In this document: in pieces, positions 9,372 through 38,475 of the stretch | How positions within the stretch are numbered: the stretch's first letter is position 1 | How the letters are laid out: every line of letters begins with the position of its first letter | Assembly (NCBI GenBank): GCA_964631365.1 | Contig: CAZVZW010000002.1 | Coordinates: 9,849-54,065, forward strand | Source: an uncultured Chloroflexota bacterium | GTDB taxonomy: Bacteria > Chloroflexota > UBA11872 > VXNJ01 | Direction of reading: 5' to 3' | Length of the DNA: 44,217 nt | The notes under the pieces: model-generated | What the model was told of the DNA's origin: nothing | Databases searched by the model: none | Seen by the model: only the letters and a program-made list of their open reading frames with translations | Made by a program: the position numbers and the translations under genes

Positions 9372-10688
9372 CTAGGCCCGCACGCCGCTGATACGGCCGA
9401 CACCGAACAGGGCGGCGTTGCGCAGACGCGGCCAGCGCACCAGTAACAGCAACATAGTGCGGCTGACGGTGATGGCGGAGAACATGCTTACCAGCACACC
9501 GATGGCCAGCGTGAGGGCGAAGCCCCGGACGATACCGGAGCCGAACTGCCAGAGGACAAAGCAGGTGATGAGCGTTGAGACGTTGGAGTCGCGGATGGAG
9601 TTCCAGGCGCGGCTGAAGCCGATCTGGATGGCGGACGTCAGGGTGAGGCCGCCGCGCAGTTCTTCCTTGCTGCGTTCAAAAATGAGGATGTTGGCATCGA
9701 CCGCCATGCCGACAGACAGGATGAATCCGGCGATGCCGGAAAGGGTGAGCGTCACCGGGATCAGCTTGAAGATCGCCAGCACCAGGGCGGTGTAGAGCGC
9801 CAGGGCGACGGCCGCGACCAGGCCGGGAAGCCGGTAATAGGCGACCATGAAGAGCGTCACGAGAATGGCGCCGACGATCCCGGCGCGGACGCTGCGGTCC
9901 AACGATTCCTGGCCGAGCGTTGGCCCGATGGTGAGGTTCTGCTCGACCCGCAGCGGCACCGGCAGGGCGCCGTAGCGGAGCTGAATGGCGACGTTGCGGG
10001 CCGTAATCGAGGTCAGCGAGCCGCTAATGGAGCCTGATGTGGATATCTGGGCCCGGATGACCGCCGTCTGGATGACCAGGCCGTCGAGGGCGATGGAGAG
10101 GTAGCTGTCGATGTTGTCACCGGTGTACTGAGCGAATCGCTCCGCGGCCTCGGGCTTGATCTGGAACTGGATTTCGGGGCTGCCCAGCTGGTCAAAGCCG
10201 ACCCGGGCGTCTTCCAGGCCGGCGCCGGTGATGACCAGTTCGACGCCCGGGTCGTCGGGACTGGCGATCAGGCCCTCTTCGAGGGGAATGAACCCGCTGC
10301 CCAGGAACTCCAGGCGGCCGGTTTCCTTGAATAGCTTGATGGCCTCGTCGGGATCGCTGACCCCGGGCAGTTCAACGATGATGCGGTCGTTACCTTCGAG
10401 CTGAATCACCGGCTCGGCGACGCCCAGGGCGTTGACCCGGTTCTCGATGATGGTGCGGACCGCCTCCATGGCGCCGTCGCCAATCTCTTTGCCGGGGGCC
10501 AGGTCGGCCTGCAGGACCACGTGCAGGCCGCCCTGCAGGTCTAGGCCGCGCTTGAGTTCGAGTTCGCGCAGATCGCGTTCGCCGAGGCTGAAGGGGAGGC
10601 CGGGAGTGCCGGGGACATCGATGTAGACGGCAAACGCGGTGAGGGTGATTATCAAGCCGAGGATGGTGAAAAGTCGGCGACGCATCAT
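9372..10688 (-). CDS. secD: protein translocase subunit SecD
   Basis: 438 aa starting from MMRRRLFTILGLIITL (ATGATG at 10688). Periplasmic P1 domain followed by six TM segments. The further 303 upstream codons of the 741-aa track ORF are R/P-rich read-through and not coding. Confidence 0.9.
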   Translation of the reverse strand: MMRRRLFTILGLIITLTAFAVYIDVPGTPGLPFSLGERDLRELELKRGLDLQGGLHVVLQADLAPGKEIGDGAMEAVRTIIENRVNALGVAEPVIQLEGNDRIIVELPGVSDPDEAIKLFKETGRLEFLGSGFIPLEEGLIASPDDPGVELVITGAGLEDARVGFDQLGSPEIQFQIKPEAAERFAQYTGDNIDSYLSIALDGLVIQTAVIRAQISTSGSISGSLTSITARNVAIQLRYGALPVPLRVEQNLTIGPTLGQESLDRSVRAGIVGAILVTLFMVAYYRLPGLVAAVALALYTALVLAIFKLIPVTLTLSGIAGFILSVGMAVDANILIFERSKEELRGGLTLTSAIQIGFSRAWNSIRDSNVSTLITCFVLWQFGSGIVRGFALTLAIGVLVSMFSAITVSRTMLLLLVRWPRLRNAALFGVGRISGVRA

Positions 10689-11247: not shown

Positions 11248-12360
11248 TTGCGAGAACGCATGTCGGCGGCGTCCGGGTTGCTGCCCGGCTTGGCGTTGAC
11301 GGCGACGGTAGCGTGGTTGGGGCTGGCGGCGAGCGGTTGGATCGGCAAGGATCTCCTCGGGTTTGAGAAGAGCCCGGTCTCGGGAATCATGCTGGCGATC
11401 GTGCTGGGAATGGTGGTGGGCAACGTCTTCCGGCTGCCGGCGGTCTTCGCCGGCGGGATCAAGTTCAGCCTGGTCCGCGTACTGCGTCTGGGGATCATCC
11501 TGCTGGGCATCCGTCTGGGGCTCGGTGAGGCGCTGAAGGTGGGAGTGGTGGCGATCCCGCTGATCGTGCTCTGCATCACCGCGGCCGGACTTATCACTTA
11601 CTGGCTCGGCAAGCGCCTAGCGCTGCCTCGCCGGATGAGCGTGTTGATCGCCGTCGGCACCAGTATCTGCGGGACGACGGCCATTGTTGCGACCGCGCCG
11701 GTGATCGGGGCCGAAGATGAAGAAACCGCCTACGCGGTGGCGAATATCACGGTGTTCGGGATTGTGGCGATGCTCTTCTACCCGTACCTGGCGGACGCGC
11801 TGTTTCCCGGCGATGCGGCCAGCGCCGGTCGGTTCCTGGGCACGGCGATCCACGAAACCGCCCAGGTGGCCGGCTCCGGATTGATCCATGGCCAGGTCTT
11901 TGGCGGGGACACCGTGCTGGACGTGGCGACCGTGATCAAGCTGGTGCGCAACCTGTTCATGGTGATTGTGATCCCCTTCCTGGGCTACCTGTACCACCGG
12001 CTGTCTGCGAGCGACAAGGGGTCCGTGGAGGAGGTGGATGTGCTGGGTCTGTTTCCGCTGTTCATCCTGGGTTTCGTGGCGCTGGCGGTAGTGCGGACGG
12101 TCGGGGATGCGACGCTTGAATCGGGCTCGGCCTTTGGGCTGTTCGACGCGGCGGCGTGGGGCGATCTGACCGGCGAGATCAAGCGCTGGGCCGAGCGTTG
12201 CTTGGCGGTGGCAATGGTCGGCGTGGGGTTGGGGATCAGCGTGCGCCAACTCCAAGGGCTGGGTCCGAAACCGTTCTATGTGGGGCTGGGGGCAGCGGTG
12301 TCGGTGGGGGTGGTGAGCCTGCTCGGGATCGCGGGCCTGAACCTGCTGGGGGTGGGCTAG
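11248..12360 (+). CDS. YeiH/UPF0324 family putative sulfate-exporter-type membrane protein
   Basis: 370 aa with about 10-11 TM helices. The GTSICGTTAIVATAP and HETAQVAG motifs are characteristic of the YeiH family. Confidence 0.8.
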   Translation: MRERMSAASGLLPGLALTATVAWLGLAASGWIGKDLLGFEKSPVSGIMLAIVLGMVVGNVFRLPAVFAGGIKFSLVRVLRLGIILLGIRLGLGEALKVGVVAIPLIVLCITAAGLITYWLGKRLALPRRMSVLIAVGTSICGTTAIVATAPVIGAEDEETAYAVANITVFGIVAMLFYPYLADALFPGDAASAGRFLGTAIHETAQVAGSGLIHGQVFGGDTVLDVATVIKLVRNLFMVIVIPFLGYLYHRLSASDKGSVEEVDVLGLFPLFILGFVALAVVRTVGDATLESGSAFGLFDAAAWGDLTGEIKRWAERCLAVAMVGVGLGISVRQLQGLGPKPFYVGLGAAVSVGVVSLLGIAGLNLLGVG

Positions 12361-12437
12361 GGGGTACGGAATTAGAGGTCGCGATGGTGCGATTACGCGG
12401 GATGCCGGTTGAAGTAGAATCTCGCCATGTTTGTCGG

Positions 12438-12578
12438 GTGAACAGTTGCGCGTTGGTGGGCCTCGAAGGGGTGACCGTCGATGTAGAAGTGGATATTTCG
12501 CGCAGACTGGCGGCGTTCAACATCGTCGGCCTGCCGGATGCGGACGTGCAGGAGTCCAAAGAGCGGGTGCGGGCGGCA
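12438..12578 (+). pseudogene. comM: 5' fragment (47 codons) of comM/yifB Mg-chelatase-like ATPase gene
   Basis: From a GTG start it reads VNSCALVGLEGVTVDVEVDISRRLAAFNIVGLPDADVQESKERVRAA, a near-textbook ComM/YifB N-terminus. The expected continuation (I-K/x-N-S-G...) is absent, and the remaining roughly 450 codons are missing. Confidence 0.65.
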
Positions 12579-13047
12579 TCAGGAGATAGCGCAGCCGCTC
12601 CAAATCGTCTAGGGTGGATATCAGGTGCTCCTGAGAACGGGGGACCAGGTAGTCATCCAGAAACGGGACATGGTCTCCGTAGAGCCAATCCTCCGTCTTA
12701 TTCACCCGGGTGCTCAACTCGCCGCCGGGGGTCTCGTACACCTTGCATGATGTGGGATAGAGATCCCCATCCCGGTCTTCCCGCCACTCGTGCACCGCGA
12801 CCTCCGGGTGAAGGCGCACGGGCAGACCCGTGAGGTCGGCGTGATCGGACTGGTCCCGCAGATATCTCGCCGGTATTTCGAGCATCGCATCCAGTCCGAG
12901 TTCCAGTTGCCGTTCAACAAATTCGAACGAGTCCTGACACTCGGCTCGGAGCGCGTCGTAGAGCATGAAGCAGCACGGCACATGGTCCGACTGCTGCCCC
13001 TGAATAGTCCGGAGCGTCCGTTCCCGGGAGGTAAGCGCTGCGGCCAT
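12517..13047 (-). pseudogene. truncated uroporphyrinogen-decarboxylase (URO-D/MtaA-like) family gene
   Basis: ATG 13047 sits behind AGGAG. The product MAAALTSRERTLRTIQGQQSDHVPCC...STLDDLERLRYLL (156 aa) resembles the N-terminal half of URO-D-family proteins. Similarity stops at about 12580. The last 20 codons are antisense to the comM fragment. Confidence 0.45.
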
Positions 13048-13213
13048 GGAGGATCTCCTGTCGGTCCGGCACCCGGGATCGTAGCAGCGCTCCCGTTCAA
13101 ATCCTTCGCGGCTTCGCATTCCTCCCTGCGGGTCGGCCGCAACCAGGCGCTCACCCCGCCGCCACCCCCGCAGCTGCCGCCCTCGCTGGTCCGGCGTCGG
13201 AGCCCACCGACGT

Positions 13214-13240
13214 CCCCGCTCCCACCCCGACCCCCACCCC
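13214..13240 (-). other. G-quadruplex-type motif inside a strongly strand-asymmetric C-rich spacer
   Basis: The minus strand reads GGGGTGGGGGTCGGGGTGGGAGCGGGG, five G3+ runs with loops of 1-3 nt. It sits in the 368-nt gap between the amidohydrolase stop (13416) and the URO-D-like start (13047). Confidence 0.4.
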
Positions 13241-13415
13241 AACGGCCCCTCTCCGGCCTGCCAACAAGCCCACCCAATCCGCCGTCCCAGTCCCCATCCC
13301 CACTCAGGCTCCCGAGACCCCGGCCGGCCTCCTCGCCCGGTTCACCGGACCGCCCGAGCTCGCCACCTCCGTCCTGTCGGCGGGCTCTTCCACGGCGACC
13401 CGCCCCTCGCCCCGC

Positions 13416-14324
13416 CTAGGCGTCCGCCTGATCCTCGTCCCATTCCGGGAAGAACTGCTTCCAGTTCTCATAGATGATCATGTCCTGCATTTCTTTCGGG
13501 ATCGTCGGCAGGCCGGTCCCCGCCACCGGCGCGTTGATGTTGCGCAGCCCGGTGATCACATTGTCGATAGTTCCCGACGGGAAATCCGACGCCAACAGGA
13601 TCTTGTGCATAATCCCGTACTCCATCGCATTGCTCATCGAGTGCCAGTAGCGCCAGGGGCGGTAGTGGACCGCCGAAATGTCGGTCCAGAGATGCGGCGA
13701 CTTCCGGATCAGCGCGATTAGGTCATCCTCCCAGGGGTGGCCCAGGTGGGCGATGACCATGCGCAGGTCGGGGAATTCCATGCAGATGTCTTCCAGCAGC
13801 AGTGGATTCGCCAGTCGCAGTTTTGACCGCGACGGGAACGTCGTCCCCTGGTGCCACATGACCGGCAGGTTATACTTCTGGCAGATTTCGAATACGCCCC
13901 AATACTGGCGGTCGGTAGGGTCGAAATCCTGGTAGACGGGGCCGAGCTTGAGTCCGCGCAGGCCTAGATCCTGAACGCAGCGCTCAAGTTCCTCCAGGTG
14001 TCCCGGTTGAGTCGGATCCACTGCCGCCCAGCCCACCAGTTTCTCCGGGTGCTCGGCCACGTAGTTGGCGATCACGTCGTTGGGCACCCAGAACCCGGTA
14101 GCCTTCGCCTGCATGCCAAAGACCACCACCCGGTCGGCCGTCGCGCTGACTTCCCAGTGGAGTTCCGGCGGTGAGTCGTAGGAATGCAGGTCCAGGCGCC
14201 CCTTGTAGGCCTGCCCGCCCGAGTACTTCAGCTTCACCAGCTTCGAAGCCAGCGCCTCCTGGGCAAACTCCTCGCTCTGGTGATCCGGATACCAGCCCAC
14301 GTGCGTATGCGCATCGACGATCAT
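13416..14324 (-). CDS. amidohydrolase_2 family metal-dependent hydrolase (TIM barrel; LigI/ACMSD-like)
   Basis: 302 aa. MIVDAHTHVG (HxH), AHLGHPW and LASDFP (Asp) motifs. Clear paralog of 22798-23637. Confidence 0.8.
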   Translation of the reverse strand: MIVDAHTHVGWYPDHQSEEFAQEALASKLVKLKYSGGQAYKGRLDLHSYDSPPELHWEVSATADRVVVFGMQAKATGFWVPNDVIANYVAEHPEKLVGWAAVDPTQPGHLEELERCVQDLGLRGLKLGPVYQDFDPTDRQYWGVFEICQKYNLPVMWHQGTTFPSRSKLRLANPLLLEDICMEFPDLRMVIAHLGHPWEDDLIALIRKSPHLWTDISAVHYRPWRYWHSMSNAMEYGIMHKILLASDFPSGTIDNVITGLRNINAPVAGTGLPTIPKEMQDMIIYENWKQFFPEWDEDQADA

Positions 14325-26264: not shown

Positions 26265-26302
26265 AGGAGAGAACACTGGAATATTCCGTTCAAGTTCTGA
26301 GC

Positions 26303-27061
26303 ATGGGCCAGTCGCTGATCGCCGGGCCCGAAGTCTTCTGGATGAGTCACTGGGATGAAGAGCTGCCGCTGGCCTTCAACGTCACCCTCATCCGCGGTCA
26401 CGGCATCACCGCCCTGGTCAACACCTCCCCACCCGACACCACCGAATACGTTGAAGAGCACTTCCCGGCCATGCGCTACCTGCACGACGCCCCGAAGGGC
26501 GACCTCGTCCGCGAAGACGGCCACTACATTGAAGCCGCCCTCGCCGCCGCGGATCTCACTCCCGACGACATCACGCACGTCTTCCTCACCCCGCTTGAGA
26601 TGTACACCACCGGCACGCTGGACAAGTTCCGCCGCGCCCAGATCGGGATCGCCAGGCGCGGCTGGATCCACTTCCACGTCACCCACGACCATCCCCACGA
26701 TTCCCGCTGGCGGTCCTTCACCCCGGAGACAATGGTCGACTTGATCACCGACTCCTGGGATCGCGTCCGCCTCCTCGAAGACGAAGACCAGATCGCGCCC
26801 GGGCTGCGCACCTGGTGGTCTGGCGCCCACCACCGCGAGTCAATGGTGGTCGAAGTCGATACCGCCGCCGGCGTCGTCGCCATCTCCGACTCGTTCTTCT
26901 ACTACGAAAACGTCGAAGACGGTCAGATGCTGGGCCTTTGCGAGAACATGTACGAGGCTCTCGAGGCCAACCGCCGCGTCCTGGCCACCGCCGACCACAT
27001 CGTTCCCGTCCACGACCCCAAAGTGTTCGATCGCTACCCCGGCGGCATAATCGCCGATTGA
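26303..27061 (+). CDS. metallo-beta-lactamase-fold, AHL-lactonase-like protein with a degenerate HxHxDH motif
   Basis: Collinear by eye with AiiA-type lactonases, but the HxHxDH position reads TPLEMYTTG. GAHH, SDS and VHD elements are retained. The start is uncertain: ATG 26303, or CTG 26276 directly behind GAGGAG, which would add LEYSVQVLS. Confidence 0.6.
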   Translation: MGQSLIAGPEVFWMSHWDEELPLAFNVTLIRGHGITALVNTSPPDTTEYVEEHFPAMRYLHDAPKGDLVREDGHYIEAALAAADLTPDDITHVFLTPLEMYTTGTLDKFRRAQIGIARRGWIHFHVTHDHPHDSRWRSFTPETMVDLITDSWDRVRLLEDEDQIAPGLRTWWSGAHHRESMVVEVDTAAGVVAISDSFFYYENVEDGQMLGLCENMYEALEANRRVLATADHIVPVHDPKVFDRYPGGIIAD

Positions 27062-34563: not shown

Positions 34564-35026
34564 CGACCCTCCCGGTGTCCATCGCCCAAATCGCGGCCAC
34601 TATACCGGGCTGCTCGCGACCAATCCGGGCGCTGGCTTCAGCCGCTCGCCCGCCGACTCGTCACGTCCCGCGGCCGCCTAGCTCAGGCCGCGGCAGTTCA
34701 CGCAGCGTCGCTTGACCCGGTCCAGCACCTCGTCGAAGTCCCCGCCGTCCTCCAGGAGCACTGCCCCCACCTTCTGCAGCATCGCGTTCGGCGTGATCGG
34801 ATTTCCTAACACCTCGCACAGAGCCTCGGCATCGCCCAGGTGCTAGGCGAGGGGCTGCAACTGCCGCGGCGGGCCGGTCGTAGCGATACAGGGATAAGGT
34901 ACAGGTCATACCGACCCGACGGGCGGGTGTACGTCGGTATGGGCCACCGGTGGCAGGACCCCGGGACAGCCCTATGCGGTTGCCGGGCCCTCCCCCGGGT
35001 GGAAATCGGGAGGGCCTTGGATGCGG

Positions 35027-35100
35027 TCGGGGCGAAAGGATTTGAACCTTCGGCCTCATCGACCCGAACGATGCGCTCTGCCAAGCTGAGCTACGCCCCG
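35027..35100 (-). tRNA. tRNA-Pro (anticodon CGG)
   Basis: The reverse complement folds as a cloverleaf: acceptor CGGGGCG/CGCCCCG, D arm GCUC-AGCUUGGCA-GAGC, anticodon arm CAUCG-UUCGGGU-CGAUG (C34 G35 G36, G37), variable loop AGGCC, T arm GAAGG-UUCAAAU-CCUUU, discriminator A. 74 nt. CCA is not fully encoded. Confidence 0.92.
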
Positions 35101-35147: not shown

Positions 35148-36260
35148 TCAGGGGGTGCGGCGGATCGGGCTCAGCGCGCGAACGGCGGGCGCGAGGTGGT
35201 CGGAGATCGCCAGGCCGCCGAAGCCTGGCCCAGCGGTGATTGGGGCGGCGCCGGCGCCGGCGATGAGGGCCGCGAGAGCGTCAGGATCGACCCCGCTGGC
35301 AAAGCCTCGGCGTTGCAGTGGCAGCGACACAAAGGCGATGTTTTCAGGACCGGGCCAGCGGGCCAGTTCGGCCACGATGCGGCGTCCGGTGGCTGGTCCG
35401 CAGTTCCAGATGAGTATGGCTGCGGCGGCGGCGCAGGCCCGCAGCGCCGGCGGTTCGAGATCGGTCGCACCGATCGGGAAGCGCTCCTGCAGCAAAGACG
35501 CGAGGCGATCGACCCCGGCGGTGCGGCCGGCGAAGCGCACGGTGGCGGCGGTCGGGATGGTGGCGGTGCCGGCGAAGGTGAGACGTTCGACGATTTCCAG
35601 TTCAGCGTGCGCCAGGGCTAGCACCGCCGTCGTGTCGCCCGCATCGGATAGGGCGATGGTGACAGCCCGCCGGGCCTCGGGTTGCCGTTCGAGACGCAGC
35701 CGTAACGTGGCCGGGATGCCGATCTCGCCGCCGACCCCGGCGGCGGCGCGGGTCAACTCGTAGCCGGCCGAGTTCTTGATGGTTCCGCCACCGGCCGGGA
35801 TGCAGAGCCCGCCGCCGGCGATCAGGTCGGCGCCGAGGACCCAGTGCCGCAGGTCGGGGAAGCGCCCGGACCTTCCCAGCGCCAACCCGGACAGGAAGGA
35901 AGCGGCCAGGGTCGCGTGCCCGGGCAGGGGAGCGACCGGCCAGTAAAGGCCGAGCTGGGTCAGGGCGTCGCCGAGCGCGGCGTGGGTGACCCCGGGCTCG
36001 ACCAAAGCGGTCAGATTGTCGGCGTCGATATCGAAAATGCGGTCCAGGCGCCGCAGGCTCAGGCGGGCGGCGGGCGATGCTGGGGCATCGTCAAGCGACA
36101 GGCGAAACCGTCCCTCGGCAACCAGCCGCGCCAGACTCTCCAGCGCCTCGCTGGAACCGGGTGCGAGGACCGAAACGCCGGCCGCGTCCCGGGACAGGCC
36201 GTCACGACCTAGAATTGATTCGAGTTCATCCCTAGGGACCGAATCGCTGGCGATCTGCAA
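35148..36260 (-). CDS. FAD-binding PCMH-type oxidase subunit-like protein (GlcE-like)
   Basis: 370 aa. VLGADLIAGGGLCIPAGGGTIKNSAGYELTRAAAGVGGEIGIPATLRLRLERQP aligns by eye with the E. coli GlcE block (GGEVMKNVAGYDLSRL..G..G). The N-terminal part is divergent. Confidence 0.55.
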   Translation of the reverse strand: MQIASDSVPRDELESILGRDGLSRDAAGVSVLAPGSSEALESLARLVAEGRFRLSLDDAPASPAARLSLRRLDRIFDIDADNLTALVEPGVTHAALGDALTQLGLYWPVAPLPGHATLAASFLSGLALGRSGRFPDLRHWVLGADLIAGGGLCIPAGGGTIKNSAGYELTRAAAGVGGEIGIPATLRLRLERQPEARRAVTIALSDAGDTTAVLALAHAELEIVERLTFAGTATIPTAATVRFAGRTAGVDRLASLLQERFPIGATDLEPPALRACAAAAAILIWNCGPATGRRIVAELARWPGPENIAFVSLPLQRRGFASGVDPDALAALIAGAGAAPITAGPGFGGLAISDHLAPAVRALSPIRRTP

Positions 36261-36346
36261 TCAGCCTTCGTGGAGTCGGCGTGTGGCCCCGGTAGTGTAC
36301 GGCAGGACCCGGTCCCGAAGGTTCGGGATAATGTGAGGATTGATAC

Positions 36347-37723
36347 TTGCGGCACGTGATCGCGGCATTTGCCGGCAAGCTCGCCGGCACGGCCATCCGG
36401 CGCTCGGGCCGGGGCGGGGGCACGGCCACCCCGGGACTGATCGCCGATCGGGTTAGCCCGGGCTACCTGCACGAGTTGCTGCGGGCGATCCCGGGTGGCT
36501 ACGCACTGCTGTCGGGCACCAACGGCAAGACGACCTCGGCGGCGATGCTGGCCGCCGTGCTCGCCGAGTCGGGACAGCCGGTGATCGGCAACCCCAGCGG
36601 ATCGAACCTGGTGCGGGGGCTGCTGTCGGAGCTTTTACGGCGTACGGACTGGCGGGGGCGGCTGCGAGTCGAACCGGACACCGTCGGGGTGCTGGAAGTC
36701 GACGAGGCGGCGTTGATTCCGCTGCTGCCACCGGCGCTGCCCGAGGTCCTTCTACTGACGAATCTCTTTCGCGACCAGCTGGATCGGTACGGCGAACTGG
36801 ACTCCATCGCGCGGCGCTGGCGGACGGCGATCGGGGAGTCCGAAGGGCGATTCACCCTAGTAGCCAACGCCGATGACCCGGCGGTGACCCACGCGGCCGG
36901 CAGCCATCGCGGGGAGACGATCTTTTTCGGCGTCGAGGACTCGACCGGAGACGGCCCGGACGAGTGGGCTGACGCCACGCTCTGCCCGGTCTGCGGAGCG
37001 ATGCTGGACTACGCCCGCGTGAATTACTCGCATCTGGGGTACTACGAGTGCCCGGACTGCGGTTTCGCGCGGCCGGAAGCACGGGTGGTGGCGCGGGACA
37101 TCGAACGGCACGGCCTGGAGGCCACCTCGTTCGTAGTCGAGGCCGACGGCGAGCGGCTGCCGATGCGGCTGCGGCTGCCCGGGACCTACAACGTCTACAA
37201 CGCGGTGGGGGCGATGGCGGTGGCGGGGGCGATGGGCGCCGGCGGCGAGGCCATGCGCCGGGCCCTGGAAGGCTTCGCGCCGGCCTTTGGGCGCGCCGAG
37301 GAGGCGCGGGTCGACGGCCAGCACCTCACGCTGCTGCTGATCAAGAATCCCACCGGCGCCAACGAAGTGATCCGCTCGCTGGCCGGGTTGGAAGGTGAAG
37401 AGGATTACCTGGTGCTCCTCAACGACCAGGTGGCCGACGGCGAGGATGTCTCCTGGATCTGGGATGTGGGCTTCGGCCGGCTGCGACCGCGCTCGATGGT
37501 GGTTTCCGGGCGGCGGGCGGCGGATATGGCGCTGCGTCTCAAATATGCCGGACTCGATCCGGTCCGAGGAATCGCGACAGAGCCTGACCTGGCGGCGGCG
37601 CTGGATCGGGCGCTGGCCGGGGCGACCGGACGGCTCTACGTGCTGACCACCTACACGGCGATGCTGGAATTCCGCGCGCTGCTGGTCCGGCGCGGGGCAT
37701 TGCGGGAGTACTGGCAGGAATGA
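36347..37723 (+). CDS. murT: lipid II isoglutaminyl synthase, Mur-ligase-like subunit MurT
   Basis: 458 aa with a TTG start. Mur ligase P-loop GTNGKTT, Cys4 ribbon CPVCG...CPDCG, and a C-terminal DUF1727-like domain. Overlaps gatD by 4 nt. Confidence 0.85.
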   Translation: MRHVIAAFAGKLAGTAIRRSGRGGGTATPGLIADRVSPGYLHELLRAIPGGYALLSGTNGKTTSAAMLAAVLAESGQPVIGNPSGSNLVRGLLSELLRRTDWRGRLRVEPDTVGVLEVDEAALIPLLPPALPEVLLLTNLFRDQLDRYGELDSIARRWRTAIGESEGRFTLVANADDPAVTHAAGSHRGETIFFGVEDSTGDGPDEWADATLCPVCGAMLDYARVNYSHLGYYECPDCGFARPEARVVARDIERHGLEATSFVVEADGERLPMRLRLPGTYNVYNAVGAMAVAGAMGAGGEAMRRALEGFAPAFGRAEEARVDGQHLTLLLIKNPTGANEVIRSLAGLEGEEDYLVLLNDQVADGEDVSWIWDVGFGRLRPRSMVVSGRRAADMALRLKYAGLDPVRGIATEPDLAAALDRALAGATGRLYVLTTYTAMLEFRALLVRRGALREYWQE

Positions 37724-38475
37724 AGCTGACGGTGGGACACCTGTACCCCGAGTTGATGAACATCTATGCCGATCGCGGCAACGTGGAGTGCCTGCGGCGA
37801 CGCTGCGAGTGGCGGGGGATCGAGGTCGATGTCCGGGCGATCACCGCCGGCGGCGCCTTCGCGCCGGATGAGATTGACATAATCCTTCTGGGTGGCGGGC
37901 AGGATCGGCAGCAACGGGCGGCCAGCGAGGATCTGGAGGAGGCCACCGGCGACTGCGTGCGCGGCGCGGTGGAGGCAGGGGCGGTGTTGCTGGGTATTTG
38001 CGGCGGCTACCAGTTGCTGGGGAACGTCTATGTGGATGCCGACGGGACGGAACTGACCGGACTGGGCCTGCTGGACCTGGAGACGCGGCACCCGGGATTC
38101 GAGGCGGCGCGCTGCATCGGGAATATCGCGATGGAGTGGGAGGGCGGGACGCTGGTCGGGTTCGAGAATCACGGCGGGCGGACCTACCTGGGAGCGACGG
38201 CTGCGCCGCTGGGACGGGTGTTGTCCGGCGGGGGCAACAACGCCGAAGATGGCGGCGAGGGGGCCGTGCGTGACCGGGTATTCGGGACCTACCTGCACGG
38301 ATCGCTGCTGCCGAAGAACGCGCACTTTGCGGATCACCTACTGCAACTGGCGATCAATCGTCGGGACCCGGGCTTTGAGCTTGCCCCCCTGGAAGATGCG
38401 GCCGAGTGGTCGGCGCACCGGGCGGTGCTGTCGCTGCTGGGGATTCGTGAAACGGGCGGTGGCGGAGCGGGCTAG
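37720..38475 (+). CDS. gatD: lipid II isoglutaminyl synthase, glutaminase subunit GatD (CobB/CobQ-like GATase)
   Basis: 251 aa. MKLTVGHLYPELMNIYADRGN N-terminus, nucleophile GICGGYQLLG, and His in TYLHGSLLPKN. Confidence 0.85.
   Translation: MKLTVGHLYPELMNIYADRGNVECLRRRCEWRGIEVDVRAITAGGAFAPDEIDIILLGGGQDRQQRAASEDLEEATGDCVRGAVEAGAVLLGICGGYQLLGNVYVDADGTELTGLGLLDLETRHPGFEAARCIGNIAMEWEGGTLVGFENHGGRTYLGATAAPLGRVLSGGGNNAEDGGEGAVRDRVFGTYLHGSLLPKNAHFADHLLQLAINRRDPGFELAPLEDAAEWSAHRAVLSLLGIRETGGGGAG

Follow-up and report, generated by a model that had tools for sequence, protein, structure and literature searches.

Branch migration in natural transformation is driven by the helicase ComM (PMC6158740), which DprA recruits (PMC12012524). 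Mobile elements are known to target the comM gene (PMC11441513; PMC10083194). For example, comM is the target of AbaR/Tn6022 islands in Acinetobacter baumannii (PMC11441513), and 12.4% of predicted site-specific serine integrases have their target in homologs of the Mg-chelatase/ATP-dependent protease type (Durrant et al. 2022, PMC10083194). The window discussed here, a stretch of 44,217 nt (G000:C2:9849-54065) from an uncultured marine Chloroflexota bacterium, carries a broken comM gene at the left edge of a large block of catabolic genes, and so invites comparison with both. Its source is a metagenome-assembled genome (MAG), G000, of 2.05 Mb in 247 pieces, with a completeness of 78% and a contamination of 0.39%. 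Like an AbaR/Tn6022 island, the locus combines an inactivated comM with a large accessory segment at the break (PMC11441513). However, AbaR keeps both comM halves and carries a Tn7-like transposition module (PMC11441513), whereas in the window 90% of comM is gone, there are no transposition genes or end repeats, and dprA has been removed too. Elements of large serine recombinases (LSRs) in Mg-chelatase/ComM (YifB) genes (PMC10083194) share the target gene, and in three genomes (G007, G009 and G011) they occur in the same bacterial family. Those of the relatives have a fixed cut at codon 349 with a recombinase gene at the joint, whereas the window is broken at codon 51 and has no recombinase.

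The locus can also be compared with the microhomology-mediated deletions of bacterial genome reduction. Here the likenesses include a common sequence of 7-8 nt that coincides exactly with the joint, a pair of truncated genes without the hallmarks of a mobile element, stubs that decay further, and a parallel case with a 13-nt match at the same locus of a congener, G004. Unlike in those deletions, the parental sequences are represented by proxies, and the joint also forms the edge of a 22-kb segment. The feature is a scar of an ordinary kind, left by a deletion or rearrangement between what are now two pseudogene stubs, and the joint at 12571-12578 very probably goes back to illegitimate recombination at a short common sequence. 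With respect to the hexameric ComM helicase and its partner DprA, the stub in the window corresponds to the start of the N-terminal ChlI/Lon-like domain, and comM and dprA are adjacent in the relative G002, which matches their functional partnership. Unlike the helicase gene, the window copy retains only 9% of its length, so no helicase can be made from it.

The joint and its two pseudogene stubs

The joint is a tail-to-tail fusion of the 5' stub of comM with a convergent 5' stub of a URO-D-family gene. The first-pass annotation had proposed a rearrangement breakpoint between two gene fragments, each lacking its 3' part, and these claims hold: the joint is reproduced in many independent assemblies, both reading frames are short of family length (515 aa for ComM and ~395 aa for the URO-D family in full-length relatives), and the missing pieces were not found in the 78%-complete MAG.

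The comM stub occupies 12427-12578 on the plus strand, with the ancestral ATG at 12427, a 1-nt frameshift, and a ComM-like frame of 47 codons at 12438-12578 whose translation is VNSCALVGLEGVTVDVEVDISRRLAAFNIVGLPDADVQESKERVRAA. Its identification as a ComM/YifB N-terminus ending at 12578 is confirmed by its 91% identity to positions 5-51 of the G002 ComM, an intact protein of 515 aa to which it is clearly orthologous. The Pfam ChlI profile (PF13541) is matched above its cut-off (E=5e-8; 33.3 bits, with a cut-off of 27), but only over profile positions 1-33 of 121. The G002 protein has the architecture ChlI, Mg_chelatase and Mg_chelatase_C in Pfam. At the DNA level, the alignment with three congeners is unbroken from the yeiH-comM spacer to ..GTGCGGGCGGC and ends there (12577/12578). 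The start of the gene reads ATG TTT GTC GGG TGA at 12427-12441, where relatives have ATG CTT GCC CGG GTG; a 1-nt deletion has cost the stub its native ATG frame, and this is further decay. The AAA+ Mg_chelatase domain (PF01078) and Mg_chelatase_C (PF13335) are found neither in the window nor anywhere else in the MAG at its 78% completeness, and a MAG-wide search for the comM 3' part brought up only other AAA+ proteins, Lon and RadA. The comM stub is a pseudogene and not a member protein of the ComM/YifB family.

The URO-D-family stub lies on the minus strand at 12571-13047 and keeps ~159 of ~395 codons. The first 156 of these (13047-12580) match the N-termini of ~395-aa proteins with the URO-D domain PF01208, residues 1-156 aligning to residues 1-156 of relatives in phmmer. 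Among 76 such relatives, nearly all are 384-419 aa long and have PF01208; the fragment alone falls below the Pfam PF01208 threshold, which full-length homologs pass. The best full-length match, at 80% amino acid identity, is P0002 from TARA assemblies. The fragment had first been described as ending at ..LERLRYLL (12580). Its 156 codons stand, but the similarity runs three codons further (..RYLLMPP) to 12571 at both the protein and the DNA level. The full URO-D fold of ~350-400 aa is not there, as residues 1-159 of ~395 are kept, and the open frame continues into antisense comM, where it meets a stop at 12517; the resulting ORF has 176 aa. Population SNPs within the stub are radical nonsynonymous changes in both of two cases (W121R and S144P). 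For the missing 3' part, the 78%-complete MAG yielded only paralogs of 27-37% identity, and the stub had no homologs in 40 relatives. Judging from gene order, the stub gene was probably the last of the block's run of minus-strand genes. Like the comM stub, it is a pseudogene.

A glimpse of what may have lain past the URO-D stub comes from the TARA contig of P0002 (L028), where the start of a same-strand gene, aconitase-X/DUF521-like by eye, follows the URO-D gene at 1401-1634. This gene has no homolog in G000 and hints at what was lost.

Because the URO-D homology is three codons longer than first described, the two homologies overlap by 7-8 nt. The two fragments had been thought to abut within about 3 nt at 12,579; there is an overlap in place of an abutment, with URO-D homology reaching 12571 and comM homology reaching 12578. 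The overlap is the junction microhomology GGGCGGC(A) at 12571-12578, which is present in both parental sequences. In the DNA alignment, comM of relatives reads GTGCGGGCGGCCATC at the joint, and the reverse complement of the P0002 URO-D homolog reads GAGGGCGGCATCAG; GGGCGGC, possibly with the next A, is found in both, and DNA homology to the contig of P0002 stops exactly at 12571. The parental sequences were represented by proxies, namely the comM of G002 and P0002, the latter at 84% nucleotide identity; no pre-deletion haplotype was found in the collections, and the nearest intact URO-D homolog, with 80% amino acid identity, sits on contigs of 1.4-1.6 kb. A scan for promoters and terminators across 12100-13500 gave nothing above shuffled expectation, and the joint itself is probably without function.

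The catabolic segment and the history of the joint

The ancestral gene order of the genus, as read from the synteny of congeners, is yeiH-comM-dprA-rpiB-protease...tRNA-Pro-murB-murT-gatD. G002 has yeiH, an intact comM (515 aa, three Pfam domains), dprA, rpiB and an S1 protease gene, after which its contig ends. In G004, secF, secD, yeiH and comM(1-94) share one contig, and the next begins with comM(95-265) fused to the middle of dprA, followed by rpiB, the protease gene, others, tRNA-Pro, murB, murT and gatD. G001 has yeiH, comM(7-108), a fragment of another gene, tRNA-Pro, murB, murT, gatD and four more genes, those after tRNA-Pro being collinear and co-oriented with the right side of the window. 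Both flanks of this order can be recognized in the window. On the left is a yeiH-like membrane protein gene (Cons_hypoth698, Pfam PF03601, E=1.5e-61) at 11248-12360 on the plus strand, whose orthologs, with 72-90% amino acid identity, adjoin comM in G001, G002 and G004. The conserved right flank begins with a tRNA-Pro(CGG) at 35025-35100 on the minus strand (ARAGORN; 61.7 bits in Rfam), which is 94.7% identical in G001, and with ~50 nt of its 3' flank: homology with G004 extends from 35207 to 34974, that is, ~50 nt beyond the 3' end of the tRNA. It continues with a murB-like gene (minus strand), murT and gatD (both plus strand) at 35148-38475, recognized by Pfam; tblastn synteny shows that G001 and G004 have these genes arranged and oriented likewise. 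Since the conserved right flank starts at 34974, the interval 12571-34973 (22.4 kb) replaces comM codons 52-515, dprA, rpiB and the protease gene. A catabolic segment has taken the place of the whole stretch between comM codon 52 and a point ~50 nt downstream of tRNA-Pro, and its left edge is the junction, as the first-pass annotation had stated.

The segment (12571-34973), delimited by Pfam content, by synteny with G001, G002 and G004 and by composition, encodes an ABC transporter, an iclR regulator, two enolase-superfamily proteins, two amidohydrolase_2 proteins, M20, FmdA, two Gfo/Idh/MocA proteins, four PTE-family proteins, a creatininase and a uxuA-like gene. In composition it does not stand out from the remaining genome (GC 65.2% vs 66.2%, tetranucleotide r=0.983), and the idea that the block is compositionally foreign was rejected on these grounds. 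Both ends of the segment cut through genes. At the right end, a suspected gene remnant at 34681-34839 on the minus strand was verified by tblastn as the last ~52 codons of the gene of a 545-aa protein with an Fe-S/FlpD domain; it has 81% identity to residues 492-544 of a gene on G002:C17, and DNA homology ends at 34835. The full-length gene is intact beside uxuA in G002:C17. The right-hand junction lies within 34840-34973, a stretch with no match to G002:C17, G004 or G001.

Parts of the segment recur in congeners at 74-93% nucleotide identity, full of deletions, at a locus on the side of typA. Reduced versions of the block stand beside typA at G000:C75:3650-6800 and G002:C17:8000-13700 (L043). 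The former consists of typA, creatininase and a remnant of the Fe-S gene and is 79% identical to the window copy at the nucleotide level; the latter additionally has deleted uxuA, SBP and amidohydrolase_2 fragments. The two creatininase copies of G000 are likewise just 79% identical in nucleotides. The window block may be an old duplication or a transfer from a relative.

How the joint came about can be approached by elimination and by example. With inversion, simple insertion and site-specific integration discounted, illegitimate recombination at GGGCGGC(A) remains. A deletion mechanism is further supported by G004, in which the same process is directly visible: comM breaks off at codon 265 and, across a 1.5-kb deletion, runs straight into the middle of dprA, with a microhomology of 13 nt, GCTGAT(C/T)ACGGCG, where the two meet; G002 has both parental sequences (G004:C50/C54, L045 and L046, vs G002:C30, L022). 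Within the overall explanation a two-step history is the most likely, with a somewhat better than even chance. First, the segment would have ended up in the interval from the protease gene to tRNA-Pro. Two GGGCGGC(A) motifs would then have served as the endpoints of a deletion that took the URO-D 3' part and anything beyond it, together with the comM 3' part, dprA, rpiB and the protease gene. The G004 deletion, for its part, inactivates comM and dprA in one event.

Alternatively, the replacement could have happened in one step, with DNA of a related strain that carried the catabolic segment spliced in at both ends simultaneously, displacing the comM 3' part, dprA, rpiB and the protease gene without a later deletion. 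Such an event would account for the gene cuts at both segment ends, and it would suit a segment that has no orthologous position in congeners, leaves remnants at the typA locus, and contains genes not found in sister genera. It needs two simultaneous illegitimate joins, however, whereas microhomology deletions are directly documented at this very locus in G004, and the native composition of the segment also speaks against it. One-step replacement is rather unlikely, although the data are compatible with either history; it differs from the two-step history in the order of events alone and implies the same kind of joint.

Far less probable is that the segment is a mobile genomic island, integrated site-specifically in comM (by an AbaR/Tn6022-type element or a serine recombinase) or at tRNA-Pro. 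The first-pass annotation had pointed to comM as an integration hotspot, and this is right for comM in general and within the family, where sister genera (G007, G009 and G011) have the gene split at codon 349 and, in the latter two genomes, a gene for a large serine recombinase at the joint; the position of tRNA-Pro at the right edge, with its 3' end toward the block, could also suggest an island. The joint in the window nevertheless does not look like one of site-specific integration. Its break follows codon 51 (G002 numbering), not 349, and the comM 3' part is absent at the far end. No recombinase or transposase gene appears in the Pfam annotation of the 27 proteins called in 12438-38475, a set that leaves out stretches such as 26276-27061, and the MAG has no ortholog of the large serine recombinase of the sister genera. 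The edges share no terminal, att or target-site repeats, a search for repeats at the edges and of the tRNA-Pro 3' end giving only 12-nt matches at chance level. As homology with G004 continues past the tRNA, the tRNA is not the crossover site, and neither a partial tRNA copy nor an integrase accompanies it. Both edges also cut genes of cargo type, and the composition is, again, native.

The comM loci of the sister genera are of interest in their own right. In G007 (L145, L146), G009:C1 (L129, L130) and G011:C1 the gene is cut after codon 349, between ..AAMNPC and PCGY.., the two G011:C1 loci being at ~3178000-3182000 (L127) and ~2772800-2773400 (L128). The large serine recombinase gene at the joint in G009 and G011 encodes Resolvase, Recombinase and Zn_ribbon domains, and the G011 copy has a tyrosine integrase-like gene and cas2-cas1-cas9 behind it. 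In both genomes an unusually large gap of 230-407 kb separates the two parts of comM, which are on the same strand. The distance of the 3' part from dprA is within 4 kb in G011 and 30-45 kb in G009, and in G007 the two are adjacent on a separate contig; G009 has two comM 3' remnants. The codon-349 element is of a known kind, with a site and mechanism other than those of the window joint, and such LSR elements show that comM is under repeated attack in the lineage. The catabolic block was also considered as cargo of these comM-targeting elements and rejected as such, since its SBP and PTE genes have no homologs in G006, G007, G009, G011 or G013 at E<=1e-20.

Deletion, inversion and insertion had all been offered at first as possible sources of the breakpoint. 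The breakpoint is real, and two of these options fall away. Plain insertion into comM is ruled out by the disappearance of the comM 3' part, dprA, rpiB and the protease gene. A single inversion with breakpoints in comM and the URO-D-like gene would, between two same-strand genes, give exactly such a tail-to-tail pair of 5' fragments. Yet it is scarcely credible and can be excluded, given that the right flank is not inverted, the order and orientation of tRNA-Pro-murB-murT-gatD...g42647 relative to yeiH being as in G001 and G004, and that the reciprocal comM 3'/URO-D 3' junction is found neither in the window nor in the MAG. Moreover, dprA, rpiB and the protease gene are missing and not displaced.

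The joint in independent assemblies

The 176-aa read-through ORF is possible only with the joint and can therefore be used to trace it. ENA, NCBI and Logan assemblies together contribute 23 contigs with this ORF, and a public protein collection has it in three allelic forms. Fifteen of the 23 contigs were checked at the nucleotide level: ENA scaffolds of three FUCH22-1 samples and one FUCH17-1 sample, one TARA scaffold, four contigs with MEGAHIT-style k-mer names, one SPAdes node, four NCBI metagenome assemblies and one Logan contig. Each of the 15 runs continuously through 12560-12600, with 98.8-100% identity; SNPs occur to either side of the joint, there are three allelic variants, and several contigs extend past the joint to the yeiH-like gene. 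For instance, between the window and a 25-kb ENA scaffold there are 15 SNPs and an indel of 16 nt, distributed on both sides. An exact 36-nt junction pattern had no match in JGI metagenome contigs; the joint was recovered via the protein index instead. Marine metagenomes, TARA among them, are the source of identical or related contigs, and the nearest named ComM homologs are distant ones from Chloroflexota, at <=56% identity. The joint is real and is inherited by diverged strains, and, at the level of assemblies, it is fixed in a widespread marine Chloroflexota population.

Misassembly is already refuted at the level of assemblies: although the MAG is scaffolded from 247 pieces with N gaps (one of 2.7 kb, and 100 N just ahead of the window start), a chimeric or scaffolding join of two unrelated contigs is practically inconceivable, as there is no N at the joint, the 15 checked contigs carry it across various samples and assemblers with allelic differences, and the two sides share just 7-8 nt, which is insufficient for a collapse of the de Bruijn graph.

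Variation among these strains has some further features. A 16-nt indel polymorphism at 13195-13210, in a C-rich spacer upstream of the URO-D stub, distinguishes the window from the ENA scaffold L019. Near the 5' end of secD, seven substitutions fall within 23 nt (10633-10655) between the window and L019/L020, and the rest of the 12.7 kb compared has eight scattered SNPs; this cluster may be a small patch of recombination or conversion.

Competence genes in the genus and its relatives

The fate of comM in the window can be set beside that of other competence genes. In G000, at 78% completeness, neither the comM AAA+ domain (PF01078) nor dprA (PF02481) nor comEC (PF03772) was found. G001 has a comM stub and a remnant of dprA, and its comEC was not found; in G003, comM and dprA were not found, and comEC has an in-frame TGA (G003:C221:3281-4024). 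G004 has the comM::dprA fusion and a comEC profile match in two pieces (G004:C17:10555-11271). All three genes are intact in G002 and in most of eight genomes searched from a sister family (f2). In the 1.9-2.4-Mb genomes of the genera g2 and g5, almost none of these genes were found. The genomes compared are in part incomplete.

Within the genus, comM is broken at three different codons, namely 51 in the window, 108 in G001 and 265 in G004, and these breaks are independent. On the G001 contig (G001:C14; L021 17826-18755), the truncated gene abuts a fragment of ~88 codons from another gene that has a homolog on G000:C97, and tRNA-Pro and murB follow ~280 nt further.

The consequence of the scar would be the loss of ComM and DprA. 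With comEC not found either, the gene content of the lineage points to a loss of natural transformation. Decay in the genus appears to affect comEC alongside comM and dprA. The pattern fits repeated loss of competence in small-genome lineages, the scar being one such event. It is possible, though we would not put it at even chances, that natural transformation has been lost convergently, perhaps under selection, in small-genome marine Chloroflexota, with the comM locus hit independently several times. If true, these lineages would offer a natural test case of the conflict between competence and mobile or accessory DNA, as has been proposed for AbaR islands.

In itself the scar is minor, a well-resolved example of gene loss via short sequence matches. 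It also carries a warning to annotators, as the 176-aa ORF present in public collections is an artefact of reading through from one pseudogene into another. The wider use of the scar is as a dated, population-fixed marker of an abundant uncultured marine Chloroflexota lineage without ComM, DprA and, apparently, ComEC, whose close relatives have lost the same competence genes through different events. This bears on how genes are exchanged in streamlined lineages, and on how accessory blocks such as the 22-kb catabolic cluster are kept or lost.
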